Positions 1 through 42,889 are shown, counted from the stretch's first letter. The stretch: 64,000 bases of DNA from Azolla caroliniana (GCA_043228905.1 JBHGNT010000006.1:3658001-3722000), one strand, 5' to 3'. Numbers and translations are program-made. Notes: generated from the letters alone by a model not told the origin.

Positions 1-132
1 CAATACATTTCACACATGAGCTCTTTGACATATATGCTCGACATGTTCAAGCCCATCTCTCCTCCCTTGATCCCTCCCTACCTTTAGAGAGCCTTAGTAC
101 GAAACTCACACACATCCTTCACTCTGTAGCAG
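1..132 (+). mobile_element. LINE (RTE/RTEX-like) ORF2, segment 1, upstream of the DNA transposon insertion
   Basis: Reads ...SLDPSLPLESLSTKLTHILHSVA. Removing 133-10334 (element plus one TSD copy) joins it in frame to DSSFPYTKH...RWYDEDC at 10335. Confidence 0.8.
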
Positions 133-168
133 AACATGTTCGCGTTCACAAGTGGAAGGATTGCGCAT
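133..168 (+). repeat. Left terminal inverted repeat (36 bp)
   Basis: AACATGTTCGCGTTCACAAGTGGAAGGATTGCGCAT. The reverse complement of 10295-10330 differs by two transitions. Confidence 0.93.
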
Positions 169-889
169 TCCACTTGTAGAATCTTCTTAAAACGAAGCAA
201 ATACACCCTCTCTACAAAAATTGGATGCACTAGTATCACATGTTCCTCAACTTGATGAGAATTTGCAAATATAAAAATACATGATAGATCTACGAGTGGA
301 GATCATTAGAAATCATGCAAGTTTAGACACGTTGATAAGTTAATGTAGGCATAATAAAGTTCAACTATGGCTCAATATGTCACTACTGTGCGACAAGGGA
401 AACACTAACTTAAAGACTTATATTAATTAGGTAAGTTTTGCAAAAATATCAGGTGTACTTGTATCCATACTAATAAAATGAGTTATAATTTATACTTTGA
501 CCCATACGTTGTCGTGAAGATTTTCGGCAATAGTGTGAAAATCCCATTAAACGTACAAAATCGAGTATGAATCACGTAATACAATAATTGTGAAGATAAC
601 ATTTTAATATCAAAGTACAAAATGATGGAGGTTTCGAATGCACTTTATTACACGAGAAATGGACAACTAAATGTCAAGATATGAGGGTATAAAGTTTGTG
701 AAAAGAAAAGAGAAAATTGTGAGATATCCCACATAGGCACGACAAATACGGCTCTCATCATATATAAGGTGGAGCAAAAGATATTATCTTTGTGTCTATG
801 TGTGGAGCATAGAGAGTTCAAGGTAACTTGAACTTAGAGTGGAGGTGGCTAGCTACTTGAAAAGGGTTTTGGCCAACCAAAACTGGACC

Positions 890-995
890 GGAGATGGAAC
901 CGGTGATCCGACCGCAATCCGGCGGCGGCATGCGGCACCGGCGGCACCGGTATGCGGCGGCGGTATCCGGCGACGGTATTCGGCGAACCGGCGAC
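890..995. repeat. GC-rich CCGG/CGG low-complexity repeat inside the transposon
   Basis: Reiterated ccggcggc / cggcggtat motifs in otherwise AT-rich DNA. Confidence 0.7.
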
Positions 996-1033
996 TAGAT
1001 AAAATAAATATATAAATATATATACATATACAA

Positions 1034-1106
1034 GGAGGGCAAGTATGGATTCGAACCTTGCACCTCCAAGCTAGGAGTCAAATGGCTTACCATTAAGCCA
1101 TGGTAT
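1034..1106 (-). other. tRNA-derived Pol III promoter-like segment (SINE head or pseudo-tRNA)
   Basis: Minus strand shows an A-box TGGCTTAATGG (1100-1090) and a B-box GGTTCGAATCC (1057-1047) at tRNA-like spacing. No convincing acceptor stem. Confidence 0.6.
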
Positions 1107-1507
1107 TTAGTTGAAATTATATTTCTATCATTGTACTTTTACATGTAAATTCTCATACATGAGAGCTAAAATGAGTGACATGGTTAGCATGCACCACATG
1201 TAATACTTAAGCGCCAAATGGCAAACATGCAATTTATGCATGTCTTGTACCCTCACATGCATCATATGCATGAGATCATCTATAAAAGAGGGAAGGGGGA
1301 GGAGAAAAAGGACGGTTTTTTTTATGAAAATTAAGAGGAAGAAATTCGTTATCAAATTGATCGTGTAATCTCAACTTCTCTCTTTTCCAATCTATCTTAA
1401 GTACTTTCTCGCCAAAGCTTGTATCGACTCTAAATCCTTCTGGTCCAGAACCCCGGCGGTTCCGCCTCACGATCCGCGCGTAGTGACGGATCTTCACGAC
1501 AACGTGC

Positions 1508-1782
1508 ATGTATGTAATTGTGGAAAATGTAGGATAGTGCACATTAGGATAAGTGATTGGAATAACTAACTTATTAAAGTATTCAATACTTGTATTTAAA
1601 GTTGATCTAATCTATTCCTTAGTTTGTTCATATGGGATCAAACCATATGTATATAATTGTGGACAATGTAAGGCAGTGAACTTTAGGATAATGTCGTGGA
1701 AATAACAAACCTATTAGGCTTTCATACCTGTATTTAAAATTGATCTACTCTATTGCTTAGGTGATTCACACAGGATCAAACT
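1508..1782. repeat. Diverged tandem duplication, ~139 bp x2
   Basis: atgtat..aattgtgga.aatgta...ggatcaaac occurs at 1508-1644 and 1647-1782. Confidence 0.75.
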
Positions 1783-2174
1783 CCGAACGATAACGCAACT
1801 GGAACCATTATCAACACACTACACCATCTAACCAGCAATGGAATAGAAAGATAATAGTTTTAACAATAGAAGACAAAGATCCATAATAACAACATGGACA
1901 GTCATGGAAACAATTATAGGGCCATGTTCTGTTAAGGTTAGCTTGGACCAAAATCAGCCTCAATTTAAACTAATTCATGTTTCTCCATAAATTTGGTAGT
2001 CAGCTATGCACGCGGTGAAACCAATGTCATAAATCTACTAACCAAGTATATAAAAATAAAATTGAAACATATAGAAGATTATAAAGAATAGAATCCACTA
2101 GGTAAAACCCAAAATTTGTATTAATAATGTGAAATCCTAACAAATCGTCAGTGTCATTTTCTTCATAGAGTCTA

Positions 2175-5100
2175 TTACATAGCAATCAATTCATTAACAT
2201 CATTTTCTTCATCATCTTGTGTAGAACTGTCTTCGGCTATACGTGCATTGGTTTCCCCTGTTAGCCGAGCCAACAAAATATCTTCTATAAGCTCATCATC
2301 AAGCTCTATTAGCTCCCCCGGTTCGCCGGCTAACGGAGGAATAGGCTCTCGCGAAGCAAGTTGAAACCTCTCTGTATTAGCGAGGTTCTTTGCACCGACC
2401 TCCTCATCCTGGTCTGGGCACTCCCACAAAGCCTTAATCCGCATATTAATAAATATAACTTGGTCCTCGTCCTTCTCCAATGCAACTGTATTTCTAAAAA
2501 GCTTCAATGCACATGCAGATGTTGTTCCTGTGATGTAAGTAACAAGAAGATTTAGTTGTCAAACGAAAAAAAAAGGGATTGGTTATCTCAAGATCGTTAC
2601 CCTAGTTCGAGGAATACCTGTGCCAGAAAAGAGATCTAATATCCAGTCTCCTTCGACAAAAAACATCTCGATCAAGCGCATCATAAGTCGTTGAGGTTTT
2701 TGGTATGGGTTGACAAGTCCCCGTTCTGTCGTGGTGACATGTCATAATTTCTGTGTCACTACTGGATATATCAACAGATTTGAACCTCCCACTTCATTAG
2801 AATGCTCCTTGATTCTCTGTTTCTTAATTTCATCGAAGTAACCAACCGTTATGTATTCAATGGCATTAACGAACCGAAAAGTTGGCCCTCTATTTACATT
2901 GGTCTTGATCCTATAAAAAAAAAATACATCGAGTTAAGAATAGATTGAACAACCTTAAGAAATGCAATATAGTGAAAGACACCTATAAATAATCCTTACC
3001 ATGCAAGGTTCTCGATGCCATGGCAACGAGATCTCAAAGCTTGAGCTACCGAGTACCCTTGGTCCATACTATGAAAGACAACTATTCGCCACAAGGATGC
3101 AATCGTTAGCTCAGCGAAATCCTTGACCATCTTCTCCAATTGTTTAAACCTAAACGGTTCATCGTCGTATGATGACCCAGCCATTCGAAATCCGTAAGGA
3201 ATATCCGCAATCATTAGCGTATATTCCTTCTTTGGCACCTTTTGGATCAAGTCGACGACATCACCGCAAACCACATTGTAGTAAAGATCTCTCGTAATAT
3301 CTTTTTTGTGGCTAAATTTTTTAAAGGAGCCATCTTGCTCCATTTTGTACGCCTTGACTAAGCGACGATCCTTTTCTTTTCTGGCTCGCTCGAGATGTGC
3401 AAGGAAGGATGTAGGGAAATCGTGTATATCCTTAACTTCTCCTTGTTTCTTGCCTCGACATGGTTTCTAATAGAAGCAATAGGACATCAGGTATTATTAT
3501 ACAAGCTCTACATATGATGAAAGGGTAATGAAAAACCATCAATACTAACCCAATCCTTGAATGCAATAAAATACTCTGATAACGCCTTATATGAAGACGT
3601 TAGAGGATAATCCTCGGTCACTTGTTCCCAAGTTATACATCCAAGTTGTTTCATCATAACTTCTTGGATCTTCATGTACACCTTATGACTGTAAAATTAG
3701 AAATCAAGATTAGAACTTTGAATTACACCAGATAGACTACAATTTCAGTATTTGAAAGACTTACTTATTGAACTCAGTGACCATTTCTTCAAGGCTTAAA
3801 TCTTTCGCCACAACCCTTGACAAAACAAACACAAGAAGCTACTCGTCCTTAATACCTTGCATCGTTCTCCACAGAGACAGCTTCATGTCGTCTACCGCTT
3901 CTTCAATTGTCAAGTCAATTTTCTTGGCGGCTTGTGACTTTAACTCTAGTTGAGGGTCAACCTTACATTTCTTTTGTCGTTGACCCTTTACCTCCTTATT
4001 CTCCCACATTGAGAAGATTTGATCTTGTAGGTCCCATACTTCTCCATCTCTAAACGCCAATTGAAACCAAGACTCATACTTTCGAAGACCATCAGACTTA
4101 ACATTATCATCTACTACAATGCCGACTTCATGCAGACAATGACGTCGTAGGCCTGGATGTAACTTCACACCAAACTTTTGTTTCACGTCTAAATACTCGT
4201 GGTGGAAGAACCGTATACGCTCAATGGACGACATTTTCTGCCTATAGTCATTATCATTATTATGGTCCCATGCCAACAGCTTAGCCTCTTCGGTTGTGAG
4301 CCCAACATAAATTTTGCACTCGGCATACTTGAAGAAGAAAGTCGTTGGATGTTCTCTCACAAGTTGCCGACGTGCCTCTACTGAATGCGATCCACCAATG
4401 ACAAAATAATTATATTGATCATGCTTTCTAATATCAAAATCTTCAATGGTTTCACATTCTTCAGGATCTACCATAACAATAAAAGGCACCACAGTGGCAT
4501 GAGGATTAATTTTCATTTTTTTCTTGAGATTTTGAACATGCATGCGGTGTGGCTCTCTAATCTCAAGTGGTTGTCAACCTATTTTTTCATCAATAGGGGG
4601 CCGATGGATGTGTGTTATAGGCAAATTAAACACTTGCCCTTTCCTGACCAGTTTCCGTTGCATTAACTCTCTCCTTATCTTATTCTGCTCGGATGACAAA
4701 ACACCCGATGCCAGCTCAGCTCCTGGCGTCCCCTTATTATCCTCCTCTTCGTTTTCACTTGTTGAATCGGTGTCTGACATTTTGGTTGTCTTCTTCTTTG
4801 GTGGTCTTGACTGGACTTTGGATACCCTTTTTGTGGCCTTCAATTGGGAGGGCACTTCATCTCTTAGAGTTACATGGCCTTGTATATAAGGCCTCAAGGT
4901 AACAATAAGGTTTTGTGAGCTTTCAAGATCTTTTTTGAATGCTTCTGGCCCACAAGATTCCTTTACTAAAAGGTCTTCTGAAAGGAACACTTTACGTACC
5001 CCCTTGGAGCACTCTATCATTACTAGTATGTTGGCCGAATCTGCATCTTCGTAGTCAAATCGTAGAATACGGCCATACATAAATGGGGTTTCCTTTCCAA

Positions 5101-6360
5101 GCTGCCCCTCCCCCTTCTTCTTTGCTGTATACAATACGACTTTTTTCTTTGAGTCGACATATTGCATACACCATTCCTTGTCTGTTAGATCACGGTCAGG
5201 AAGGTCTTCACCTCCAGTAGCGGCGACCAGTTTCTTTTGGCTAACATCAATATGTGGCTGAGATTTTGTCTCTTCGTTGAAGAGAAGCTTTTTTCCTCTT
5301 TTCATGGTCTCAGGAGCTACCTTGGTCTGGGCTTCGATTGGAGAACCCTGTATGCGAAGCTTTATTTTCTTCACGGGTCGGTCCGACAGGTTCTCAAACG
5401 ACCTATTTAAGAAAGTATATGCAAAAACATAAGTTAGGTGGTCACGTAGATTAAGGTTGTTTATTAAAATATAAATATTAAGATGAAGAACAGTTCTCAC
5501 TAGCAGGCGATTAGTGGTGAAGTGAAAATATGAATCATGCATTCAGAGTACATGGTAGTCCTATATTCAAAAATCTATTCTAGGCAGGGCTATTCAAACT
5601 AGAAAATATATATCATAATAAGTAGACAGGGTTATATATTCTTTTAAAGAGTAGGTATGACTTATATAGATTCCAAACCTATATTGAGGAGAATTTGCTA
5701 TCGTAAAGGCAATTTGTGGATCATTTTCTACTATTTTCAGCTAAAGTAGGTCATAAAACACCTATAATTATGGCATGTTTTTTTTAAAAGTAAGGCAAGT
5801 CAACATAAAAAAGACTGATTTTGACAGACAATTTGATATCTTTTCCACACAATAATTAATTGTTACCCCAAAAACACAAATTTTCTCTTTCAGAGCCTTC
5901 TTTTATACAGGAACTCGATACGGCGTATCGAGTTCGTGTTTGAAGTTTAGGATACGCCGTATCGAGTTCCTGTGCTTTCTTTGCTTTTTAAACAGGAACT
6001 TGATACGGCCTATCGAGTTCCTGTTTAAAGTTTAGGTTTTAAACGAGAACTCGATACGGCGTATCGAGTTCCTGTTTAAAGTTTAGGTTTTAAACACGAA
6101 CTCGATACGGCGTATCGAGTTCGTGTTTAAAGTGTAGGTTTTAAACAGGAACTCGATACGCTGTATCGAGTTCCTGTTTAAAAAGCAAAAACAAATTATG
6201 AACTCGATACGCCGTATCGAGTTCCTGTATAAAGTTTGTATTGTATACAGGAACTTGATACGGCGTATCGAGTTCTTGAGCGACGAAACATATTTACAAA
6301 AATGTCCACAGTGTAAGAGGCCTACCTGGAGTCCTCGCGCTCGATTCTCTTTGAAGACAT
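2175..6360 (-). pseudogene. Six-exon gene encoding a ParB/Srx-like domain fused to a beta-class N4-cytosine/N6-adenine DNA methyltransferase (~974 aa; 3 in-frame stops)
   Basis: Exons 6360-6326, 5402-3765, 3688-3550, 3466-3000, 2910-2618, 2527-2175. All introns are GT-AG and phase-compatible; CDS is 2925 nt. MTase motifs in beta order: ADIPYG (motif IV, 3205-3194), W-IKTN, AIEYI, VNPYQKPQRLMMRLIE, GDWILDLFSGTGTTSACALKLFRNTVALEKD (SAM-binding motif I). ParB-like segment IREPHRMHVQNLKKKM..VPFIVMV..YFVIGGSHSVEARRQL at ~4560-4350. Stops: TGA 4576-4574, TAG 3841-3839, TGA 2744-2742. Confidence 0.88.
5911..6275. repeat. Array of 25-bp palindromes GAACTCGATACGnCGTATCGAGTTC with 51-bp period, in intron 1 of the MTase gene
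   Basis: Copies start at 5911, 5945 (partial, visible from 5951), 5996, 6047, 6098, 6149, 6200 and 6251. Confidence 0.95.
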
Positions 6361-6400
6361 GGTTGATCGTGTGGCAGTGGAGGCGGAGATCGCGCTTTGG

Positions 6401-6468
6401 TGCTTTGTGCTCTGTGTGCTTTGTGTGCTCTGTACGTTCTGTGTGCTTTGTACGCTCTGTACGCTCTT
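6401..6468. repeat. 9-bp minisatellite (ctYtgtRYg) in the putative 5' UTR of the MTase gene
   Basis: ctttgtgtg / ctctgtgtg / ctctgtacg reiterated about 7 times. Confidence 0.8.
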
Positions 6469-6495
6469 ATGAGTGAAATATGACGAGGTCTTCCT

Positions 6496-6503
6496 ATTTA
6501 TAG
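6496..6503 (-). promoter_or_regulatory. TATA box of the ParB-MTase gene
   Basis: TATAAATA on the minus strand ~135 bp upstream of the ATG at 6360. Confidence 0.6.
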
Positions 6504-6724
6504 GGATTGACCACATTGGTTAAAGTAACCATAGTCACCTTAACCAAGGTTGGTAAGTTTGAGGATAGTTAGTTGGTAACCACAGTCACATTAACTAGAG
6601 TAACTTATGATTGCATTAATGATTACAAAGTCAAACTAACATATTGATCAATCTTTTATAGTCATAACAACCTGCAATGACTTCAAAGGTCATGAAGGAG
6701 ACAATGATAGAGGTTCATGAATGT

Positions 6725-6902
6725 ACCAATGATTGATTACTAAAAGCAACAATTTTTATGACTCTCAAATGCTGTGTATTAAAGATGTGGGCATGAATTA
6801 ACCAATGATTGAGAAGTCTAATATTTAAAATGGTGAGCATTAAAGAACCAATGAGTGAGAGGTTCTATATCAAAATGGGTGCCATTAATTAGCCAATGAT
6901 TT
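6725..6902 (+). promoter_or_regulatory. CCAAT-box cluster in the divergent promoter between the MTase and transposase genes
   Basis: CCAATGA repeated at ~6726, 6802, 6848 and 6893. Confidence 0.45.
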
Positions 6903-7203
6903 TAACATTAATCCAACATATTCATGGCTTGTTAATGATTAGATTTATATTATACTTGATTTAACTTCATATAGATGTAGTTTATATAATAATTGATATT
7001 TTAAGTACAATTACTTTATTAAAAATAAATTTTTTATGTATTGTATTAATAGAATATTACATAATATAGACATTCTATTGATTTGGCTTTTGTTTAGAGA
7101 AAAGTTTATGTTTAGAGAGGAGTATATGTTTAGAGAGGAGCTTATTAGTTTTTTTCCTTACCTCAAGCACATAACTTACAGAGCCCTATCTAGACCTTAA
7201 GCC

Positions 7204-9973
7204 ATGAGTGAAGATTCACCGTTCTCGATTGAAGAATATTGTTTGTCATCAGACTCATCGTTTTCTACTAAAGAGTATTGTTTGTCAACAGAGTCACCAT
7301 ATTCGATTGAAGAATATTGTCTGTCGACAGACTCACCATATTCTATCGAAGAATATTGTCTGAGCTCATCTATAGGGAATGTAAATAATGACACATGTGA
7401 AGAGTTGTCTATTGAAGAATACGATATTAATGAAGATACGGAGAATGAAGGTAACATTGAATAACATTGGCGATGGTCACAACAGAGAATTAGATTGTAA
7501 CAAGGTTACACCAACCGCTACGCAGGAAGAGAAATCTGGGAGCCCTATGCATATTAGAAGAATCCCATGAAGAATTCATCTGGCTAGATTTAGCTTGGTG
7601 ACATCAGATAAACAGATTGGATTTGATGTCAAAAAAATATGTTGTGCCCGTGGTTGTATGTCTATGATTGGAAAATCAAAGTTGCGAGAATTAAGGCAAT
7701 ACTATTTTTCGATGACTGGTGATGAGCAAGACACTTACCTCGGGTCACATATGCAACTAGTATCTGACAAATGTACGGGGATCAAAGTATCATTCGAGTA
7801 TTATATCTTCCATGCGCAACAGATATGTAGAGTTGCATTCAAAATTGCGTTATGTGTTAGTAACATGCGGCTACATAGAGTACAACAACGTCTACTTAGC
7901 GGGGATCAGATGCTCAATTGTAAAGAGGTTCCAAGTATGAAAGGTGCAATTGGAAGACATGCTATTGGTTGGATGAAAACTTACTTTCAGTTAAATTGTG
8001 AAGTAATGCCCACTACAGGTAGGATGCATCTTTCTGATAATTATACACGTCGGGAAGTTTATGATGTCTATCGATCTGATATGCTGGGCTCAAGTAATAA
8101 GTTTATCACCTATAGCCAATTCACAAGATTATGGAGAGCTCGGTTTTCAAATGTTATTATTCCTCGTAAAGTACGTATGGGGTATTGCTCCATTTGTGCA
8201 AATCTTAAAAGTTTGGCTAAAGGTGCAAAGACATCAATGGAAAAGGATACGAGTAAGAAGTTACTACAAGAGCATCGTGAGGCACAATCCTTAGAACGAA
8301 AGAAGGCGATGCATCATAGAGAGAACTGTTTGAAGAGGCCCGAACAATACATGTGCTTAATGATAGATGGCATGGACCATAAGAAGACATGCTTGCCGCA
8401 TATGCGGAGGCTCCCCAAAGATGTCAATGATGAGTGCCTTGTTCAAATGCACTTGGTGCGATGCTTGGCTTATAATAGGTCTGTTCGACCTCACGTCTTC
8501 ATTACTTACCCCAATGTTCACAATGACCCTAACCTAACAGTTACAATGATTCACCAAGTTTTGATGTCTTGGGGCCAACCTTTCCCCCCTGTTTTATATA
8601 TTCAATTGGACAATACTGCTAGAGAGAACAAAAATTCAACTGTATTTGGCTATCTAAGTATGTTGGTCAACCTAGAATTGTTTAGGAAAGTGAAAGTCAA
8701 TTTCCTTTTGGTTGGCCACACACATGACCATATAGATCAGATGTTTAGCACATTCTCCAGACAGTTGTCTCGGCATGATGCTTTCACTTTACCTAAACTA
8801 TTTGATGTCATTTGTGATGCATATACACCACGCCCAAAAGTGTTACACTTGAAGGAGGTATATGACTTTAAGAGATATATATTAGATGGGGGTGGTGGGA
8901 ATGTTAAAGTGCTTGCTCAGTTAAACAATATAAGTTTCAATCACATTTTTATGATAAAGAAAAATGGAATAAGTGGTTCTACACTTTTGTATGCTAAACA
9001 ATATTCATCTTCTACAACATGGGAACCTGAAGGTGGTTGCCAGTTATTACTATGTATGCCGAGTACAATTGTCCATGGAGCTAAGCAAATGCCAATTGAG
9101 AAGAAAGGACAGTTGCAGAGCGACTTGGTATCGGAACAAAAATGGTCATGGCTCCAAGCCTTAGAAGAAAAAAGAAAGCATATTGAGGCCGCCAAGAAAT
9201 ATGCCGCACAACAAGACACGTCATGGTGGGATGTATTTTATAGTGATCAGAAAGAAATTATAGACAATTGTGTATCTGTTGATAATTGGAATTTGGAAAC
9301 GCCATTCACATGGTCACTGCAACATGATCGCGTAAATAGAACTCCGGAGCAACTAGTAAATGCGATTAATGACAGCTTAGTCCATCCACAACAAAGAGAC
9401 ATTTATGTGGGACCAAGGATGACCAAAGCAACCGAAGCTAGATGGCAAGGCAATTTGCAAGAGCTCACCGCGGGGATGTTGATTGCAACGCCGGCTGATG
9501 AGAACTCACATGGCCACCAATTTTGGGTTGGTAAAATTCTAGAAGTGCTAATGCATGAAATAGAAAACACGATCAAGTCTATAAATGTTCATTGGTACAA
9601 CACTAGAAGTGCAAATGCTTTTACAAGTAAGTATACATTGGAGATGATTGAATGCCCAACAAGAAGGGGAGGTAGGAAGAGGAAGCGAAACATTCGTAAC
9701 ACCTCGACCCTTGATATCTCTGATGTGGATATCATCGTGTACGACTTCACACTTACAAAAGCCGGACGATTAAGGAAGTCAACAATAGATATAATAAAAG
9801 AAAAATTACCAGGTCTACAAGGTGGCTCGAGTCAAAGGCAAACGAGATCTGCTACATATAATCTAGAGTCAAACCATTTGGTTTATGACGAAGATAATGC
9901 ACTGATTGGTACATCCGAGGATGATGAGGAGGAATCGTCATTGTATATTAGTTATAGTAGTGATTCTCCGTAA
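7204..9973 (+). pseudogene. Sola/DUF7869-like DDD transposase (792-aa open core 7595-9973; reconstructed ~919 aa)
   Basis: Putative catalytic motifs LMIDGMD (D at 8366), LYIQLDNTARENKN (D at 8609) and FLLVGHTHDHIDQMFS (8714-8737). Upstream Cys/His motifs CCARGC and CSIC...H. The N-terminus is broken by a 10-bp insertion at ~7460 and a TGA at 7568-7570. C-terminal FWVGKI..VHWY domain. Confidence 0.8.
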
Positions 9974-10294
9974 AGGAGTGATCATGAATGTATATTTGGC
10001 TATTAAGTGTAACTACATTCCGCTTTAACAAATCGAGTAATATAAAAGCATGTGTTTTGAATTCTTATGATTTCTAAAAAATCGTTTCTTATAAAATAAC
10101 ATTGGTTGTAAAGTTTGTGATATAAATTGATAATGTATCTTTTTGAAATTCGTCTTTTTTTAGTTACTTCTAAATCACGAAAATAGTGGATTTTTAACCT
10201 TTTTCATAGTATGTTTGAACATGTATGATACTGGTATCAATGTGTTTTGTAAAATCATTGAAAAAGCCCTAAAATTTCCCTTATCCTTCCATTT

Positions 10295-10330
10295 ATGCGC
10301 GATCCTTCCACTTGTGAATGCGAACATGTT
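10295..10330 (-). repeat. Right terminal inverted repeat (36 bp)
   Basis: ATGCGCGATCCTTCCACTTGTGAATGCGAACATGTT followed by the TSD GCAG. Confidence 0.93.
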
Positions 10331-10951
10331 GCAGATAGTAGTTTCCCCTACACGAAACACTCCAATCAAGGTAAAGTAGGATCTATGCCACAAAATAGAT
10401 GGTATGATGAGGATTGTAGGTGCTTACATAGACAACTTACAATATCACAACTCAATGGTAGTATTACCTCAGTACAAGCTCGTAAAGAAATGCGCAAGAT
10501 GACATGTCGTAAGAGACGAGCATGGGAGGCATCCCAATATTGGGAACTCTACCATATGCTCATGAGTAGCGATTGTGCCATTGCATGGAAGAGATTACGG
10601 GAACCAGGACAACAAACACCCATCGAAGATCCCGAAACTTGGCACACTTATACAGAGAGACTTTACCAAATCCCAAACCAACCACCCATTCCAATGCCTT
10701 CTACACCCCGACCTACTGTGGAGACACTCTTCACGACCTCTAGGGTCATGAAGGTCATAAAGAAATTACAACATAGGAAGTACATGGACCACACAGGATT
10801 GCGAGCAGAACACATCATATATGCGAGAGAGTGCCTAGCTCCCTTGCTAACTCTAATCTTCAATCGCGCCCTCGTAGAGGGTTTTCCACCACAATGGACC
10901 ATGAACACAGTGGCCCCCATACATAAAGGGGGGGACCCCATGGACCCAAAT
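10331..10951 (+). mobile_element. LINE (RTE/RTEX-like) ORF2, segment 2
   Basis: RWYDEDC...LIFNRALVEGFPPQW..VAPIHKGGDPMDPN is the region just before the RT domain; it joins TYRTIMIGH at 17394. Confidence 0.85.
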
Positions 10952-11406
10952 CATTAGAGATCTAGGTACTAAAGTAAGCTTAAGATAAGGATACACTAAT
11001 GATAGATAGAAAGGAGAAAGAGAAAGAAGGGTGCCGATCCACCCGACCACCCTCGAGCGAAGGGATCGAGACGGACTCTAGCCTTGATCGGTGTCCCATA
11101 CCACCGCCGTGGCGTCGAGTCGTAACTGGTGCTGGCGCGCTCGCTACAAGAGTTGACCCACCACAAGAGCAGAGTCTCGATGTAGTCAAAAGATGATCAA
11201 ATGAGGGTAGCTAGGCCTCTTATTTATAGCAATACCCAAGGCCCCCAGGCAAGTTCACACTTGACCTAATGGGTTTTCTCAATCCCGAGGATTAAAAGTA
11301 ATCCTCCCCTTCTTTACACTCTCGTTTAACCCTCACACTTATCCACGTGTATAGAATACTACGGTAAATTCTCACCACGGGATATTAAATGGTCATGCCC
11401 GTAACA
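10952..11406 (-). repeat. 3' LTR (455 bp)
   Basis: Matches 17102-17388 apart from a 168-bp segment; adjacent to the PPT. Confidence 0.9.
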
Positions 11407-14400
11407 TACTCCCCCTCTTTAAAACATTGCACTCTTGCAATGGAAAGTTAGGGAAGTTAGTTTTGAGAGTATTTTCGAGTTCCCATGTGGCATCTTTTAT
11501 TGATTTATCCATCCATTTTATTTTAAATTCTCGGATTTCTTTAGTACGTAATTTTTTTGTTTTAACATCGAGAATTCTTTCTAGTACATGTGGTTTAGAA
11601 GATAATTCTTCAAAAGTAACTAGAGTTTCAGTTGTAATTGTATTGTCACCAGAACCTAGAAGTTCTTTTAGACGACTCACATGAAAGACTGGATGAATTC
11701 CAACACCATCGGGAAGAGCGAGACGATAGGCTGATGACCCAATGCGTTTGAGGACTATAAAAGGTCCACAAAACCATGGGGCTAACTTAGCGCACTTACC
11801 CGTATTGTGAGGTACATGTAAAAATGCCTTCTGTCCAGGGTTGAATACACGAGGTTGCCTATAATGATCGGCATAAAAACGCACTCTATCTTGAGTTGTT
11901 TTTATATTATCTCGTGCAATATGCAACATATCTTGCATATCCCGAAGAAAGTTTTGCGTACTTCGCAACTCATCATGATGTATATTAACATCAATCGGGG
12001 CTCATGGCTGAAAACCATACATCAACATAAAAGGACTATATCCCGTCAACGTATGCTTGGAGCTGTTATAAGCAAACTCCAAAATTGGGAGATAACCTTC
12101 CCATTTTTTTGGTTTTGCACCAACGTATGCTCGAAGCATGTCCTCAATAATTTGATTTACTCGTTCTGTCTGCCCATCGGATTGAGGACGATCCGTGGAG
12201 CTCATGCTCAACGTAGTTTCTAACTTCTTAAAGACTTGCGTCTAGAAGTCACTAGTAACCTTTGGATCTCGATCACTCACGATATCCATCAGTAACCCAT
12301 AAAAACGAAATAATTCGTCAACGAATTGGTAAGCCAATTCAGGAACTGTTATCGTGCTTTTAGTAGCAATAAATCTGGCCATTTTAGTTAGTCGATCAAC
12401 GACAACCCAAATGGCATCATGACCTTTTTGGGTGCGAGGAAGGCTAACAGTAAAATCCATGGATATACTTTCCCACTTATTATTGGGAATGTCCAAGGGA
12501 TGTAAAAGTCCTGCGGCTTTAAGTCGCTCGACTTTGTTAACCTGACACTGGTGACATTTAGTCACATAGCTATGTATGTCAGGACGCATCTTAGGCCAAT
12601 AAAATTGAGTGGAGATGAGAACGAGTGTACGATGTATTCCAGGGTGCCCTGCTGAGGGTGCATCATGGCATTCAAAAAGAATCATTTTTTTGACCTCGGG
12701 TAAATCTAGAACACAAACCTTCCCATTACGGTAGAGCAAACCATTAGCAATGTGGAAGTATTCCTTCGAGGATGTGGTGGTGTCTGTTCCAGACTCAACT
12801 CTTGCCCAGTATTTTGCAAAATAATTGTCATTAGGATACTTTCCTCGAAGGTGATCATAAGCTCTAATGTTATTTCAGTGAAGCTAAGCATGTTAACTTC
12901 ACGGATGCGACTTAGTGCATCAGCGACAGTGTTCATGGAACCTTTACGATATCGTATGGAAAAATCAAAGTCTTGGATGAGATCAGCCCATCGTGCCTTA
13001 CGACCTTTCAGGTCTTGTTGGTCACAAAAATATTTCAAGGACTCGTGGTCCGTAGTTACCACAAAGCGATTTCCATAAAGATAATGGTGCCATGTTTTGA
13101 GCGCATGTATAACTGCAAATAATTTCTTTTTCTTGTACGGTATACCGACATTGAGCAGAATCAAGTTTCTTACTCTCGAATGCTATTAGTTTACCATGTT
13201 GATATAAGACAACACCTATAGCATAATCGCTTGCATCGGTTTGAACCTCAAAAGATTTTGAAGGATCAGGTAAAAGAAGTGAAGGAGCCTTGCAAACCAG
13301 GTCCTTGAGTTCCTTAAAGGCGAGGTCTAGTGTAGCATTCCACACAATAGGTTTTGTAGACTTACGCGTTTGACCTTTTAAAAGATCAGTAAACGGCGTC
13401 GTCAATTGGGACTAATTACAAAGAGACTTTCGCAAAAACCCGACAAAACCAAGGAATGATCGAACTTCTCGAATATTCCGAAGAGTGGGCCAAAGCTTGA
13501 TTTTCTCAATGCGAGAAGGATCAATTTCAAATCCTCGTTCGGTTATGAGATGTCCTAGATAAGTAATTGATTTCTTGAAGAACTCACATTTTGAGATCTT
13601 CGCATAAAACTGTTTGTCACACAATGTTTGTAAAACAAAGCGGACATGTTTAACATGTTCTTGTAATGTACGGCTATAAACTAAAATATCATCCAAGAAA
13701 ATAACGACAAATTTTCCAAGTTGTTCTCGGAAAATGTCATTCATTTCTTGTTGAAAAGTAGCCGGAGCATTGGTCAAACCAAAAGGCATAGCCAAAAACT
13801 CGTAATGGCCATAGCGCGTACGAAATGCCGTTTTAGGAACATCGTCCTCACTTATTCGTATTTGATGGTAGCCAGTACGGAGATCAAGTTTCATAAAATA
13901 CCGAGCTCCCTGGAGACGGTCAATTAGATCGTCAGCCCGGGGCAATGGGTACGAATTCTTGATCGTCACTTTATTCAAGCGTCGGTAATTAATACACATA
14001 CGCCATGTGCCCTCTTTCTTTTTTACCAAGAGAATTGGTGCACCCCATGGAGATTTACTATAATGTATATAACCCATTCGTAAATAGTCCTTGAGTTGCT
14101 TAGATACCTCATCTTCTTCGGATCGACTTAAGCAATACGGAGGTATACTTATTGGTGCAACACCGGGTACAATATCTATACGATGGTCTATATTACGTTT
14201 AGGAGGTAACCCATCAGGTAGTTCACTTGGAAAAACATCATGAAAATCATTTAAGATTTCATCAAGTTGTTGTTGTTCAAAATATGTTAATTGAACCGAG
14301 ACATTATCGATATTGTAAACGTGAATGTCCGGATCAAGTACACAATAAAATAACGTAGAACAAGACAACTCGGATATTGATGGACACGAGGAAACAATCG

Positions 14401-14803
14401 AGAGGGATTGTTTTTTTACACATTGAATACAATGCGTACAATCGTTCAGTACAAAAGAAATGGAATGGCGAACCCAATAAATAAATAAAGAAGAGTTTTT
14501 ATTATAAAACCAAGGATAACCCAGTATTACATCGGTGGTACAAAGATTCATTACATGGAAGTCTACTTCCTCTATATAAGTATCAATAGAAATTCCTAAT
14601 GAATGAATCGCCCCATTGATGTATTGTACTCTTCCATCAGCCAAGTGCACCGTGTAGGTGTGATCACTTACGGTGGGTTGGATTCCCCATATCTGAACCA
14701 AACGATCATTCACAAAATTGTGTGATCTTCCCGAATCAAATAAAAAATGTACGGGAGATCCATTGATATATCCGTTTGCACATAGTAAATCATTGGGACC
14801 CAA
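11393..14803 (-). pseudogene. gypsy pol (protease, RT, RNase H, integrase, chromodomain), frameshifted
   Basis: LFDSG (PR), FLDDILVYS (RT), TDASDYAIG (RH), H..GH..C..C and SMDF/SDRDP/GQTER (INT), ILDVK..FKIKW..ATWE (chromodomain). Split over several ORFs. Confidence 0.92.
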
Positions 14804-14839
14804 TACATAGTGAGGGAAAGAACATTGACAATTACTTAA

Positions 14840-15761
14840 ATGATGTGTATAGACTTGAAGGACATTAGGAATCTGACCTTTATGGTCTGCAGCTTTAGCT
14901 TTGTTGTCATGCTCTTTCCGTTGGAGCTTTCGACATTGATCTTTTGTATGACCCTTCTTTTTGTAGAATACGCAAAAAGGATGTTGTCGCTTAGAATCGT
15001 GATCCGTGAATTCGTCGGGTGTCTTGCGTTTCCCAACAAATTGCGACTGCTTAGTCCCGGGCGCTTCGTTGGGTTTGTTGTGGTCCTTCTTCGAAGTGCG
15101 TTAATAGCGAAGAACTATTTCAACAGCCTCTTCGAAGGATTTTGGATCCTTATCGTGCACTATCCAGTGATAGTCCGAATTGGGGATGCCATTGACAAAA
15201 CCAGCTATCAACCAATTGTCCCCTTCTAGACCCGATTTTTGGATTTGGGTTCTAGCATGGTGAACATAGTCTTCTAGTGAGGAAAATTTCCTGCTAGAGA
15301 GGTTCATTAAAAACCGTGACAAAATATGTCCAAGTATCGGGCAATTTCCCCGTTGTATGGAGCCCACGCCACCAGGCGGCGGCCTTACCCCCGAGTTCTC
15401 GGCCGACATATGCAATCTTCGTACTATCTGGCGTGGGATAGAGCTCAAAATGAGACTCCCATCGTCCCAACCATGTGCAGATTGCTTCTTCGGTTCTTTC
15501 CTTTTTGTCTCCCGTAAATGGCTTAACGACAAACGATGGTTCACCCTGTCGTTCATCAGGTCTATTAGTCTCACGTTGTAGACTAATGACACGTGCCTCG
15601 AGAGCACTTTGAGATTGCCGAAGTTCGGTCATCTGTTGAGCGGTGAAACTAAGGTATTGGGTTATTTGTGCCAAATACATCTCAGTGGACATTTGTCCAA
15701 GAGGATTCCCTTGAGTTCCTTCCGCTTGAGCGGATGACATCGGGTCGTTAATTTGAGCCAT
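14840..15761 (-). pseudogene. gypsy gag, frameshifted
   Basis: PFTGDK..WL.RWE.HF..LGGKAAAWW capsid-like motif located between the PBS/5' UTR and pol. Confidence 0.75.
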
Positions 15762-17101
15762 TAAAGATTATTTCTGGAAAAGAAATAGGATAAGGTCAGA
15801 GAGATAGTCATAACATCATGTCGTGATGTAAACATATCATGGGCAAACATTAATCGATATCATGATCTCACTTCAATACCCCTCTAGACGTGTGTGATGA
15901 GGTTCAAGATTAGGTTACGATGGTAACACAAAGGTGTTTTAAAAACCATGGGGGTGACAATTTAATGTCTTTACCTGATCTCTATATTGATTTTTTCACG
16001 GCGGCTCCCCGAGGCTCAACCATGTATGTTCGCGTCATGAGTAGTTTATACACAAAAAAAATGTTAACAATAAACTATGTTTCTTTGCCCACATATGTGG
16101 TTTCGGCTCTTTAAGTCCTATTACGAGGACCCCGAGGTGCACTTAGACCTTAAGTCTAAACATGTGTTATAGTCATATGTATCAAGGATGTTGTATGGTC
16201 TTGGTCATATTTGAACTCGAGACCTCGAGAACAAATATATTAAACACTTGAGCCAACCAAGTAAGTTGCTCTTCTCGAATGTTTAATGTTTGATGCGTAT
16301 AAGAGATATGCGAGGAATTTGATCATATATGTTTTTTTTTAAAAGAACATATATGTCAAGGGTCCTTATTTCGCCCTCATTTACCAAAACTATGTTGGTA
16401 CATTACCTAACCTCAAGTCTCGTAATTACGATGGCATACGCCAAAGTGCAACCTAATGGTCAAGCCAAATGAGCCCTCGTTTCGTAGTAGGCCCACGTGG
16501 CCCATCACATGGTCACGTCATTACGAATGCCTCTCGTAAGAACGAGCTCATGGTGGCATCGTATCCATGTAACGAGGGAGGGATGTTGGATACGTGTGTC
16601 ATTGGAGCGACCTCACTTGAAGTGGGTCAAGCCCTGCGTACTCATCGTAATACGCAATTGAGGTATTGACCTCTTACGCATACGAGACCAAATGCATATC
16701 CTTTACAACAAATCAAGGTATTAAACTCATACGCAAACGTAACATATGTTCGTGAACGTAATACGTAATTGAGGTATTAACCTCGTACGCATACGACACT
16801 CATCACATATTATTTATATGTCAAACGAGGTATTGACCTCGTGCACATATGTAAACATTTTAGGTAATCAATTAAAGACCACTACAACATCATTGACTTA
16901 ATGAAAAAAAATGACATATAAACTAAACACATGATTAGATGGGAGAAGAGAGAATAGAAAAAAAAAAAATTACGGAAAGAGTTACCAAAGTTTTTTGTTG
17001 ATCGTTGTCTGGATCAAGGCTGACCGCACATTGATCGATCACCATCAATCAAAAGACAAAAGACAAACAAAGAAACATTAGTACATAGCTCTGATACCAA
17101 A

Positions 17102-17388
17102 TATTAGAGATCTAGGTACTAAAGTAAGCTTAAGTTGACCCACCACAAGAGCAGAGTCTCGATGTAGTCAAAAGATGATCAAATGAGGGTAGCTAGGCCT
17201 CTTATTTATAGTGATACCCAAGACCCCCAGGCAAGTTCACACTTGACCTAATGGGTTGTCTCAATCCCGAGAATTAAAAGTAATCCTCCCCTTCTTTACA
17301 CTCTCGTTTAACCCTCACACTTATCCACATGTATAGAATACTACGGTAAATTCTCACCACTAGATATTAAATGTTCATGCCCGTAACA
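17102..17388 (-). repeat. 5' LTR (287 bp, 168-bp internal deletion)
   Basis: taag joined directly to ttgaccccaccac relative to the 3' LTR; adjacent to the PBS. Confidence 0.9.
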
Positions 17389-19645
17389 CAAATACTTATA
17401 GGACCATTATGATAGGTCATACCCTTGCTAAATTATATGGTGCAGTAATGGAGGCAAAGCTTAGCGATTATATGGAGACCTTAAATCTTTGTGCACTTGA
17501 ACAGGCTGGCTTTAGACGAGCCTTCTCCACTATTGATCATATCTTCACACTTAGATGCTTAATTGACCAGACTAAGGCTCGCAAGAAGAAACTATATTGT
17601 TGTTTTGTGGACTTCCGCAAAGCCTTTGACACGGTCCCTAGAGAGTGGTTGTTTGATAGGCTTAAGAGCTTGAGGATACCAGATGACATGATTTGGGCCA
17701 TCTACGCACTATATGAACAAGTGTTCGGGTGTGTTCAATGCCCAGGTGGCATATCCGATAGTTTCACTAGCACTATTGGTGTAAAACAAGGTTGCCCCTT
17801 ATCTTCGACTCTTTTTGGGATCTACATTGATGAGATCACAAATTTTATTGCTCGTAAGGGAGGCAATGGAGTAGTCCTTGGGGATACGCAGGTGCATATC
17901 TTGCTCTATGCAGACGACATAGTTTTGCTCTTTGAATCTGAACACGACCTACAAAGGCACCTTAATGCCTTAGATGACTTTTGCACACAACAAGGATTGG
18001 TAGTGAATCTAGGGAAAACTAAAGTCCTTATCTTCCACACGTCGGCCCAAGTTAGAGCTAAGTGTCACCTAACTATCTCCCATAGCCAAGTTGAGGTGGT
18101 TGGATCATATGTCTATCTCGGAGTCACTTTCAGTGCCCGCTCAGGTAAATTTTCGATGACACAAGCAGCGAAGGATAGACTTACAAGAGGACATGCATCC
18201 CTCTCACTCCTCGAGAGACAATGCCGCCAAGCATACTTCCAAGAGCCACGAACTAAAGGGTGGCTCTTTGACTCATTAGTGACTCCCTCTCTCATGTATG
18301 CATCAACGGTTTGGGCTCCAGGACTACCATCTTTCATGTGGACGCAATTAAGAGACCATTGTTGATGATGTTATCACGCCAACTCCAAAGCAAATCGTCG
18401 GTCCCACATGACATTATTAGGGTTGAGTTCACTCTACCCCCTATGTTAGTAGAAGCACTTTTTCAACTTGTAGTCTTTATCCACAAGATACATAACCAAC
18501 CACTTGATAGAATATCCCATCAAGCCTTTAAGGCTTCTCAAGCACTGTATGAGTCCGACTATACTAGCTCATGGTATGGCATGACGGTGAGTTGGCTTCT
18601 TGCCAACGGTCTAGACATTAATAACCTCCCCCCCCCTTAAGTACGACCACACGACTGATAACACTTTAATCTCTCATGAGGACCGTAATAAAGTAATATG
18701 CCAAGAAATATGACAAATTTATACTCGATATAAATGGATCACCCCTCTAGAGCAACTCCCATCTAAAATGTCGTACTATAAGGAACACTTTATGCACTTC
18801 TCTAAGTTAGGTTTTATTATGCAGCCAAGATATCTAGATGTATTCTTACCACATGCACTAAGGGTTGCCATTGGTCAACTTAGAATATCATCTCACCAAC
18901 TTGAGATTGAGAATGGACGTACTAATGGAGTCCCTAGGGAGGAAAGGATATGTAGGTTATGCCATATAGAGATAGAGGATGAGTACCATTTTACATGCAA
19001 ATGCCCCACCTATGCCGAGATAAGGACAAAATACCAAGACATACTTGGTTCCTCTCCCACCCTCCCTAAACTATTAGATACACTAGATATAAAGAAATTA
19101 GGTAGATACATCTTAGAATTGAAACAACATAGAGAGAATAAGTTACAAAACATTAACAATAATGTTGCTAATGTTTACCAACATGTAACAAATGAAGTTT
19201 TTCAGGAACAGGGGGAGACAATGAATGTCGACACACCTGAACCACTCGGGCTTTTCCTTGATGAAGTAGAAAATCAAAGAAGAACCAAACGCCCTTGGAT
19301 GTCGGGTTTCAAAGCAACTTGATGAGATGTAGAAGCAACAAAGAAAATAAGGGAACGTGAACTACACCGCCTAGAAGCCATGGTTAGGGCACTCTATACA
19401 CTAGGACCATGGGTCACACCCACACCAAAAACTTTTGACCTCCCACTTCTTTTTGAGAGACTTAGGTGGAAATGAGATTAGGCTTAGAGCAAAGTTTTGT
19501 ACACTACTAGAACTCTCTTAGCTTAAGCTATTTTCTTTTATTTTAGTTTTGATGATTGGATAAACACTCATTTTTGTTGTAAACCAATTGTCTCATGGGC
19601 CAACTTTGGCCTTAGAAGATGTTAATATATCTTTCTTTCTTGCTT

Positions 19646-22345: not shown

Positions 22346-24187
22346 AACACGTTCACATTCACAAGTGGAAGGATCGTGCATTCCACTTATAAATTCCTTT
22401 TATAGTCTTGCGATTTCATGCAATTTTCAGAAACTTGATACACTAGTATCACATATTTTAAACAACATGTAAAATTTGCTAATTTTTTGAGATTTAACAA
22501 GTTTCAAAATGATAATTTCTAAAATTGAATAGTTTTTCAATAAATGTTTAAACGTTGATGGTCTGCAGATATGAAATGTAGTTAACTTAAAGAAAATCAC
22601 AATGGTTAACTCAAGACACAAGTTAAAATTAATGGTTCACCATCTTGAGGAGATGTAGGTTCTAGAAGTGGAAGTTACATCTATTGTTAGACTTGAAAAT
22701 GTTTTAAGTATAAGAGGTAACATTGTAATCCTTAATGCCATCATCTATAAATTTAGTGCTCATTAACATCCATCAATTCACAACTCAAGAAATGTATCCA
22801 ATATTCATAAACAATTTTGATAAATCCATAACTCCTAAAATGTAGAGGATATTCATCAACTGCCAAACTTAGATACATGTAAACATTAATATATCAATTT
22901 GAACATATCACATAGTTATCAAGCTATCCACAATGCTCTCCTCTTCTTTATTTTGATAACTCCCCTACAAAATTTGTGAAGTAAATGGCACTTGCAAGGT
23001 TCAATTACCATCAACACAATCATTAATGGTTTTTTGTTAATCAAGGAAGCACATGCTTACCATAAGGTATCTTGTTGTGCAACATACTTCTTTACAGTAT
23101 CGATATGCATCCTTTACTCTTGTAAAAACATAGATTTTAGTACAATTTGAGTTCATGTTTAAAAAACCTCTTTTATTTGAAAAAAAAGAAGATTTTTAAA
23201 CATGAACTAAAATCAGAGTTTTCATCACAATTCTATACAATATATCAAATTCATGTTCAAAGTTTTTTTTCCTAGATTTAAAAAAACAATACAATCAAGC
23301 TTGAGTTGATGAAAAAACCAGTTTTTTCACTACAATTCAATACAATGTATCGAGTTCATGTTTAAAGTTATTATTATTATTATTTTGGAAAAAAAACTTT
23401 AAACATGAATTCGATACATTGTATCGACTTGTGATGAAAACTCTAGTTTTTTCATCACTTCAAGCTCAAAATGTTTTTCTTTTTTTTTAAATTTAAAAAA
23501 AAACTTTAAACATGAACTTGATACATTGTATCAAGTTCACGTCAAAAACTTAGCTTTTCGACACGAACTCGATACATTGTATCGAGTTCATGTGAACTCT
23601 GTTTTTCAACATGGGTTCGTGTTTAAAGTTTTTTAAAAAGTTTTGATTTTTTTCTATTTATTTTGTTTTTTTTTAAAAACATTTTGAGGTTGAAGTGATG
23701 AAAAAACTAGAGTTTTCATGATAATTGAATACAATGTATCGAGTTCATGTTTAAAGTTTTTTTTTCCGTAAATAAATAAATAAATTGAAAAAAATTAAAA
23801 ACTATTACTTTAAACCATAGATTGACATATTCGCATTCGTGGGGTTTCTCATTCGAATGCAAATGAATACAAATACGAATGGGTAGTCAAGTATTCGTTT
23901 AATCCCCCCCCTCCCCCTCGAAAAAAAAAACTTTTTTAAAATTTTTTCCTAAGGTAAAAAAAAAAGAACTTAACAATAAATAGGGATAATAAAAGAGGGA
24001 CTTTGGGGTCTTGACACTACTAAATTTTTATAATAAATGTATAGTCGTTTTATTTTTAATAAATAAATAAAATAAAATAAAGGCTCGTTAATTTTTCACT
24101 TTTTATTTCCTCAAAATTTATGGATATTTTTATCTTGACATTAAAAATGGTACTTCAAACTAATCATATCTTTAAAGTTCATACTAA

Positions 24188-24214
24188 TAACCCTAAACCC
24201 TAAACCCTAAACCC
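24188..24214. repeat. Short interstitial plant telomere repeat (CCCTAAA)3+
   Basis: taaccctaaaccctaaaccctaaaccc. Confidence 0.85.
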
Positions 24215-25190
24215 ATGCAGCTATCGATTCAGTCTTCGTGGATAGAACCAGGAGCAGGATATGGAACTCATCCCTTCCCGAGCGGATCAAAGTGTTTTTC
24301 TGGTTAATCACCCATCGGGTTGTTCCAACGGGAGAGTGGCTTGGTAATAGAGGCGGCATGAGTGGTTGCAAGGCGTGTAGTGCGAGCTTGGAGGACATCG
24401 CTCATTGTTTGTGGTGCTGCCCACGAGCGCAAGAAATCTGGCTGAGGAGCTTAAGAATCTTGGCTCATTTTGGGGTTGAGGTTCATGTATCGAGCGCAGC
24501 AATCACTTGGCTGGCCACTGAATCGGCCTCGTGGTTTCAAGAGTGGAATGGAAACAGTCCTTTAATGGTGAAGCAAGGATCTGTGCAACCAGCAACGCAA
24601 GGAGGTTTATTCTGCTTATAGGAACGCTATGTGGACATATGGGTATTAGTGGTCGGCCTTACGGTCTGGCAAGTGTGGGTATCTCGGTGCAAGGAGACCC
24701 TCACAGGTAAACGAACCCCACCGGTTGAGAATTTAATGATGATCTGGTTTAATCTTATTTCTACGTTGCGAGGTGAGTTTGAAAGGCTTCAAGGGCCATT
24801 TGATGCAAGTGAAGAAGTTAGAGCTCGATTCCTTCAGAAATGGAGCAGTTCGTCAATGCTACAGATAATGGATGGTAAAGTGAAGTGGAATTATCAACCA
24901 CCGCGGTGGTTGTTCCCTCCAAGTGTTCCTAACATCTAGATGGGTGCTGCCATGAGGAGCGAATGGAGGACATCTATGCTGAAATCTGTTTTGTATGAGG
25001 CTCACGTGGAGAATATGTGTTCGAGTAATGCTATACACATAGAATGATGTGGTGTTTTGGAGTTGTTTTTTTATGTTGTTTCATCTACACATTGTTTTCC
25101 TTTGACATGTAAGATGTCTTGTAAGATATGAGTTGTAAATGATTCCTTTGTACATTCTTAACTAATGGAAGTAGATGTTTTTGGAAAAAA
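24215..25190 (+). mobile_element. 5'-truncated L1-clade LINE (zf-RVT C-terminus, 3' UTR, A tail)
   Basis: IWNSSLPERIKVFFWLI.H..C..C..EDIAHCLWCCP.A..IW, then WNYQPPRWL; ACTAATGGAA at 25161 followed by an A-rich tail. Confidence 0.85.
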
Positions 25191-42700: not shown

Positions 42701-42889
42701 CTCATGGTTCCCTCCCCGTTGCAGGTCCAAAACAGCCTGAAGCACGTTGTTGGTGATGGCTTCGGGACTTATACGTTTCGCCACAGTTTGGGCATCTGGG
42801 TGTGCGGGGGCATCGATGATCTTCAGGTAACCGCCCATTCCTCATTCCTGGAGCTAGGCGCGGGTTTCTGCTGAGGCGATAAGAGGCAT
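39797..42889 (-). pseudogene. Extra sense ORF 3' of pol (~1030 codons, 4 in-frame stops): globular N-terminus, Pro-rich linker, long coiled coil
   Basis: ORFs 41972-42838, 41585-41917 and 39797-41572 share one frame with the ATG at 42889. The C-terminal half is E/Q/K/R-rich and heptad-like. Confidence 0.75.

Follow-up and report, generated by a model that had tools for sequence, protein, structure and literature searches.

Why should a plant cut-and-paste transposon carry a DNA methyltransferase (MTase) of prokaryotic type, joined to a ParB-like domain and accompanied by an array of phased palindromes? The question is raised by an element at positions 133-10330 of a 64,000-nucleotide stretch of the Azolla caroliniana genome (JBHGNT010000006.1:3658001-3722000; hereafter the window). 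We found that members of a multi-copy family of transposons with terminal inverted repeats (TIRs) carry the MTase as conserved cargo, and codon comparisons show that the MTase is under strong purifying selection. As to its function, we tentatively propose, at slightly less than even chances, that the family's protein binds the array as a dimer, methylates its own promoter region and keeps both genes of the element expressible despite silencing by 5-methylcytosine (5mC).

The element is bounded by 36-nt TIRs (133-168 and, on the minus strand, 10295-10330) that match at 34 of 36 positions and start with AACA(C/T), and it is flanked by a direct duplication of GCAG (129-132 and 10331-10334). It sits in the plus-strand frame of a host LINE-like (long interspersed nuclear element) sequence; the 5' part (1-128) was the insertion target, the 3' part follows at 10335-10950, and both are represented in a contig of run X1. 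When the element and one GCAG were deleted in silico, a single open LINE-like frame was obtained from the window start to about 10950. Furthermore, an empty-site contig of run X1 joins position 124 to 10336 with 9 letters between them, where 13 would be expected without a duplication, and this spacing fits a 4-bp target-site duplication (TSD). The TIRs, the 4-bp TSD, the restored LINE frame and the head-to-head gene pair claimed in a first-pass annotation of the window were thus all confirmed. The layout given there stood for the boundaries and the genes, but in the left arm a stretch of about 1 kb (505-1506) proved to be a separate nested insertion, unrelated and non-coding, with 17-bp inverted ends and CA flanks, that lies outside the family design: it is missing from the relative L002, and contigs of run X1 span parts of it with different flanks. 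We take its ends to be EnSpm-like, and 46 nt of it match window positions 43303-43348 at 93%. Without this insert the element measures about 9.2 kb. No Rfam match was found within 1-11000.

Relatives were fetched with the ParB exon, and 80 of 171 matching metagenome contigs were kept for the analysis. The transposase was also matched in 13 of the 80, in 11 cases head-to-head with the MTase gene, at 50-73% identity; most contigs that lack such a match are too short to reach the transposase. In the other two it lies downstream on the same strand (a fragment at L031:4033-5946, either a nested insertion or an assembly chimera) or is a 31-residue fragment (L047). Trees of the transposase and the ParB part (11 rows) contained the same three groups, and their pairwise distances correlated with r 0.91, the compared kin not being independent. 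The TIR of the window element was present in three copies in the window and in 11 of the 80 relative loci, and a second type, that of L045, in one copy in the window and nine in relative loci. Both types start with AACA(C/T) and have differing flanks, and neither can be found with the other at 9-10 mismatches. L045 and L029, the two contigs that contain both ends, have TIRs of 33-37 nt and showed no TSD, as expected if they are collapsed multi-copy assemblies; the TSD length therefore rests on one insertion. The relatives anticipated earlier, stop-free and of the same layout, were thus recovered, but the TSDs anticipated for them were not seen in these two contigs.

Forty contigs matched each of the five coding pieces that begin with the ParB exon, and 39 of them gave gene models. 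Thirty of these models contain no stop; they have intron phases 2, 0, 2, 1 and the motifs ADIPYGF, NPYQKP and DLFSGTG, the DIPY and the FxGxG-type motif being invariant. After removal of models with stops, models below 640 amino acids and duplicates, 26 distinct coding sequences (CDS) were used to estimate the dN/dS ratio, omega. The codon model gave 0.033 for the MTase, 0.027 for the ParB part, 0.036 for the linker and 0.128 for the tail, and median pairwise values were 0.03-0.15 (14-34 pairs, dS 0.1-1.5). In Riccia sorocarpa, a protein with DUF7869, the domain of the transposase (R1sor_010795), and a ParB-like protein with an N6_N4_Mtase domain (R1sor_010796) have consecutive locus tags. The first-pass annotation had called the MTase cargo of the mobile unit and had named a dN/dS near 1 as a sign to the contrary; pairing in 13 of 80 contigs argues against a one-off capture, and an omega of about 0.03 is far from 1.

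Two further family members were found in the window itself. The stretch 22346-26206 is a deleted and rearranged member with a window-type TIR at 22346, palindrome clusters (23334-23745 and 25458-25634) within a long inverted duplication, and a remnant of the transposase C-terminus (25702-26206); it contained no MTase match and no second TIR within 9 mismatches. Positions 50575-50826 hold the transposase-side end of an L045-type element, its TIR having 3 mismatches, so that at least two subfamilies and at least three copies occur in 64 kb. At L015:3280, the MTase gene of a different subfamily contains a terminus of the L045 type, which is either a nested insertion or an assembly chimera.

Proteins that combine the ParB-like part with an MTase are found in Chara, Adiantum, Ginkgo and sea cucumbers, and the ParB part in a slime mould. 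The sea-cucumber type (P0211, P0225, P0291 and P0294-P0297, each ParB-like with PF01555) includes several Holothuria paralogues and has a degenerate motif IV, DMPQ or DMPK. The nearest named homologues of the window's ParB exon are from Ceratopteris (72% identity), Ginkgo (50%) and Calypogeia (36%). Conserved spliceosomal introns, the LINE target and the plant homologues rule out a bacterial or phage contaminant. Searches of viral contigs and, with the single query P0149, of bacterial and archaeal genomes gave no relatives, and an MTase tree of 24 rows, with one non-family-type row and long branches, did not resolve the origin of the enzyme.

In the window copy, the MTase gene lies on the minus strand, head-to-head with the transposase, as a 974-codon model of six exons and five GT..AG introns, the five junctions being predicted from sequence and conservation and not from RNA. 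A short predicted exon 1 (6326-6360) precedes intron 1 (5403-6325), which contains the palindrome array; exon-1-like sequence also lies upstream of the array in L006, L007 and L017, whereas a search of eight other loci with the same pattern gave no such exon. Exon 2 (3765-5402) encodes an N-terminal region, a domain of ParB/Srx fold and then a helical, putatively helix-turn-helix (HTH)-like region (about 4620-3800). Exon 3 (3550-3688) is a helical linker that matches predicted proteins of Ceratopteris and Ginkgo. Catalytic motif IV, DIPY, lies in exon 4 (3000-3466), the motif X-like NPYQKP and motif I, DLFSGT, in exon 5 (2618-2910), and the end of the S-adenosylmethionine (SAM)-binding region with an acidic tail in exon 6 (2175-2527); this is the beta-class order (IV ... 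X, I). Three in-frame stops, two in exon 2 (4574-4576 and 3839-3841) and one in exon 5 (2742-2744), interrupt the gene. Relatives carry Arg or Gln at these positions, which fits C-to-T decay at CG and CHG sites. By reference to the uninterrupted relative P0031, the transposase frame shifts near 7448-7455 and meets a stop at 7568-7570. The window copy is therefore dead, and its earlier description as autonomous does not apply to it. Contigs of runs X1 and X2 over 1-11000 included none on the MTase gene, which is uninformative either way on expression, and none on L045.

The fold of the MTase was modelled on the Ginkgo homologue, since the domain of the window copy is split over exons. The model (predicted local distance difference test, pLDDT, 93) best matched CcrM (E 3e-16, template-modelling score 0.78) and also RsrI, MboIIA and BceJIV, and the N4-methylcytosine (4mC) enzymes rotifer N4CMT and PvuII ranked lower (E about 1e-11). 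N6-methyladenine (6mA) enzymes also ranked first in a search with the family profile, and homologues matched PF01555 above the cut-off. The single exons of the window fell below Pfam significance for an MTase, and a search against PDB sequences likewise missed it. A beta-class N6_N4_Mtase fold, which had been assigned to the gene earlier, was thus recovered by way of the homologue. We consider it likely that the family's fusion protein is catalytically active, and nearly as likely that its mark would be 6mA rather than 4mC. Adenine is favoured by the Asp-first motif IV, typical of N6A enzymes (PMC8885841); DIPY is invariant in the fern-type family, and DPPY is found in P0186 and P0233.

For the upstream part, earlier called ParB-like, a ParB/Srx fold was recovered with moderate scores. 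Among 48,161 chains compared with a model of the window's ParB exon (pLDDT 83), PadC came first (Z 7.7, root-mean-square deviation (rmsd) 2.9, 83 residues aligned), and KorB, a ParB-N protein, sulfiredoxin and Spo0J followed (Z down to 4.7); judged by their titles, six of the best seven chains (Z 4.5-7.7) are of ParB/Srx type. With Foldseek, the top nine matches to the exon were all ParB or Noc, if weak (best E 0.012), and a ParB-like PHROG matched at E 0.024. In whole-model comparison, the alignments to Spo0J and the ParB-N protein extend over the helical region, at an rmsd of about 5. In the ESM Atlas, residues 150-320 of P0001 (the ParB-like part) resemble unnamed clusters from sponges, cnidarians and molluscs (0.96) and one fungal cluster (0.95), 31% of whose members have DUF3723. 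DUF3723 is a Starship-associated family, and it is possible that ParB-like cargo of different giant elements is linked through it.

The array, at 5912-6274, consists of seven copies of a 23-bp palindrome within 2 mismatches, spaced by 51 nt after a first gap of 85. In the whole window there were 15 matches to the 23-mer against 0 expected from 100 shuffles, all of them in this element or in the second family member at 22346-26206. Across the family, 91 distinct sites gave the consensus AABTCGATRC-NNN-GYATCGAVTT, the variable arm positions of which are mirror-complementary more often than expected (0.81 versus 0.32, and 0.88 versus 0.50), and the core CGATRC-N3-GYATCG is common to the window type and the L045 type. 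Its copies lie apart by multiples of about 10.3-10.5 bp: the distances group at 31-33, 40-43, 50-54, 63 and 72 nt, about 3, 4, 5, 6 and 7 helical turns. For 46 spacing values from 16 arrays chosen to represent the subfamilies, R at 10.5 nt was 0.62, a value reached in 0 of 5000 uniform draws; this significance is overstated, since the arrays share ancestry and several units add up in some of the long gaps. At least three cores were present in 8 of 13 loci with at least 2.2 kb of upstream sequence. The phased array reported in the first-pass annotation is thus present and phased, and its place is now refined to intron 1 of the MTase gene. A putative recognition helix in the fusion protein, KS[DE]G[LI]RKY[ED][SP]WFQLAFR, is near-invariant, with one R in place of the first K. 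The core and this helix stay constant while the TIR and the transposase diverge, from which we infer that the fusion protein is the binder; binding through the helical region after the ParB domain is rather probable.

These features can be joined in the proposal made at the outset. The ParB-fold/MTase fusion would bind the phased palindromes as dimers, and the bound protein would methylate nearby DNA, probably at adenine, including the shared promoter region between the two genes. This candidate divergent promoter (6361-7203) contains TATAAATA on the minus strand at 6495-6502 and CCAAT-containing repeats at 6691-6901. The mark would keep the promoter usable against host 5mC silencing. In other eukaryotes 6mA accompanies permissive chromatin (PMC12695648), and VANC proteins act via tandem targets in their own elements (PMC5735166); we put the chances of an activating or anti-silencing outcome at about even. 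A wider proposal, which we find doubtful but not far-fetched, is that seed-free plants and gymnosperms harbour an abundant, ancient lineage with a parS-like address-and-write circuit, in which a ParB-derived MTase would read the helically phased array of 23-bp operators, place 6mA (or 4mC) on family members only and counter silencing by RNA-directed DNA methylation (RdDM) and CMT, and that the module spread to Chara, sea cucumbers and a slime mould.

Several observations weigh against the anti-silencing proposal. The stop-free contigs are probably collapsed multi-copy assemblies, which do not prove an intact present-day copy. Motif IV reads D-I-P-Y and not D-P-P-Y, with DAPY, DFPY or DLPY in other plants, and the DMPK/DMPQ of sea-cucumber-type homologues makes some lineages look catalytically degenerate. 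A non-proline second residue of motif IV occurs in active RNA amino-MTases. The ParB match is moderate (Z below 8), the HTH part taken by itself matches nothing strongly, and in an hhalign comparison of the family profile with the ParB+MTase fusion P0248 the MTase end alone aligned. Furthermore, the CTP-binding GERR(xRA) box reads GSHS, in the family GGSHS(A/T/V)EA, a correspondence made by motif alone. In Caulobacter ParB, R103A and R104A abolish CTP binding (PMC8367383); with the GERR arginines replaced, a CTP-gated sliding clamp should not be assumed, and ParB-style CTP-driven loading appears doubtful. Of the 13 loci with 2.2 kb or more of upstream sequence, 5 have fewer than three cores. 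In the window copy, and in its array as well, decay from C to T affects 15% of CG, 21% of CHG and 7.5% of CHH sites. Observed/expected CpG in the family CDS (0.47-0.90) is not above that of the Gypsy elements in the window (0.99 and 1.12), so that the sequence gives no hint of escape from 5mC.

The same protein could also limit its own element, binding the array and methylating the promoter or the ends so as to repress or time transposition. Dam methylation controls transposition of IS10 and Tn5. The array lies in intron 1, just downstream of the start of the MTase gene, the classic place of an autoregulatory operator, and bdelloid 4mC has been linked to silencing of transposable elements (TEs). 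However, such control needs the same hypothetical steps as the anti-silencing proposal, and the abundance of the family, with three members in the 64-kb window, fits a pro-transposition role at least as well; we consider it unlikely. Slightly less probable again is a fusion protein that binds or bridges with little catalysis, or palindromes that serve as transposase enhancers or hairpins. DIPY and GSHS are non-canonical, motif IV is degenerate in the animal homologues, the deleted member at 22346-26206, which has no MTase match, has kept arrays next to what is left of its transposase, and the mirror-symmetric arms could fold as hairpins. Against loss of catalysis stand the presence of DLFSGTG, NPYQKP and ADIPYGF in all 30 stop-free models and the omega of 0.03; against a role for the transposase or for hairpins, the core bears no relation to the TIR and has not changed as the TIR and the transposase have, and helical phasing points to a protein on duplex DNA.

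A third alternative places 4mC at the CpG of the CGAT core, or element-wide, where it would occupy the cytosines that the host's 5mC enzymes would otherwise modify. The invariant core does contain a CpG, some enzymes of beta-class fold write 4mC (matches to PvuII and rotifer N4CMT have E about 1e-11), and the known plant and animal amino-MTases write 4mC. Enzymes of that kind carry SPPY or TSPPY, whereas the fern-type family is Asp-first, and the best sequence and fold matches are 6mA enzymes; this alternative is the least probable of the three. There is virtually no room for a one-off or neutral capture (Pack-type cargo), for which only the pseudogene state of the window copy speaks: it is refuted by the transposase pairing, the 30 stop-free models, omega of about 0.03, a layout kept over subfamilies at 55% transposase identity, the Riccia gene pair and a brown-algal element of the same design.

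That brown-algal design and a red-algal one are published, and the combination, for which no description was known at first, is therefore already on record: Sola1-1_Ec32 of Ectocarpus (PMC12477816) and Plavaka PAG3 of Bostrychia (bioRxiv 10.1101/2025.02.11.637652) precede it. Sola1-1_Ec32 encodes, on the strand opposite the transposase, a protein of 1104 aa (974 here) with a ParB-like domain and a 4mC/6mA MTase, for which self-binding and modification were proposed. It resembles our element as a TIR transposon with a 4-bp TSD, AAC...GTT termini (AACCG there, AACAC/AACAT here) and the accessory gene inside the TIRs, but it is a brown-algal element of 21.5 kb with 282-bp TIRs, whereas ours is from a land plant, with about 9.2 kb and 36-bp TIRs. 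The available passages of that account contain no palindrome array, target site or selection analysis, and the likeness is one of description. Our element is a land-plant case of this transposon kind, recently reported (2025) from algae. The best match of the Sola1-1_Ec32 transposase is moss Sola1-1_PPa (PMC12477816), and this Repbase entry may already include a ParB-MTase gene. We found no land-plant description of a ParB-MTase transposon in the open literature, the search having left subscription journals and Repbase Reports outside. Plavaka PAG2/PAG3 likewise combine a transposon-borne ParB-like protein, adjacent tandem inverted-repeat arrays, a PF01555 methylase in the same cassette and proposed self-modification, but they have an EnSpm/Plavaka transposase, their ParB is joined to a 2-oxoglutarate (2OG) oxygenase, and a gene of its own encodes the methylase, fused to SET (bioRxiv 10.1101/2025.02.11.637652).

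More distant parallels exist for the parts. In Arabidopsis VANDAL/VANC, a TE-encoded accessory protein acts on tandem motifs of its own element; that element is MuDR, however, VANC causes 5mC loss and is not a methyltransferase, and its targets diverge quickly, whereas the palindrome core here is conserved across subfamilies (PMC5735166). Marchantia MpDN4MT1 (bioRxiv 10.1101/2021.02.12.428880) and bdelloid N4CMT (PMC8885841) are bacterial-type beta-class amino-MTases of eukaryotes, but they are host genes with SPPY/TSPPY that write 4mC without a ParB domain, and the available parts of these reports do not describe them as transposon cargo. A ParB-type domain linked to a prokaryotic N6A-MTase is known from phage ParB-terminase loci and from chlorophyte ParB-HTH-Dam fusions, and these are the likely ancestral stock; the chlorophyte fusions belong to group 2 (EcoKI/TaqI-like) and not to the beta class, and no TIR transposon context is given for them in the passages available (PMC4738411). 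The bacterial ParB-parS, Noc-NBS and KorB-operator systems share a ParB/Srx fold followed by a helical region and clustered palindromic sites, and differ in that the GERR arginines are replaced here and there is no ParA. The parS site is unlike a 23-bp odd-centred palindrome.

ParB-MTase self-modification had been proposed for algae only, and according to the Bostrychia preprint no transposon other than VANDAL is known to bind its own sequence and modify it (bioRxiv 10.1101/2025.02.11.637652). To that proposal the present family adds members that are numerous, diverged and strongly selected, a seemingly intact active site, and a candidate operator that is conserved and in helical phase. With a defined phased candidate target and evidence of selection, the self-methylation hypothesis becomes directly testable, including from existing fern long reads. 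If it is true, land plants would have a DNA mark that is written by a TE, and its writer would be a compact enzyme directed to defined sites.

The DDD transposase is an intronless plus-strand gene (7204-9973) of the DUF7869 family (E 1e-49), with three conserved Asp motifs, IDGM, QLDNTARENKN and GHTHDHID. Uninterrupted relatives (P0031-P0039) are 73-91% identical, and ESM Atlas clusters for the protein were DUF7869 only. We file the element as Sola1-like, its transposase being compared with Sola by description. A 4-bp TSD (from one insertion) and TIRs agree with Sola membership. A target preference for AWWT, a hallmark of Sola (PMC3845634), was not found, the TSD being GCAG and the flanks varied in about 20 loci, and we therefore prefer Sola1-like to plain Sola1; the target of Sola1-1_Ec32 is itself listed merely as 'biased towards ending in A' (PMC12477816). 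At the transposase N-terminus, 39-nt tandem repeats (7212-7362) encode an acidic (S/P)YSIEEYCLS repeat that is also present in P0031 and P0034. Other elements in the window are Gypsy-type long terminal repeat (LTR) retrotransposons at 11393-15767 and 39797-48875 and a LINE at 17364-19322; the first of the Gypsy elements has a chromodomain and interrupts the host LINE near 10950.

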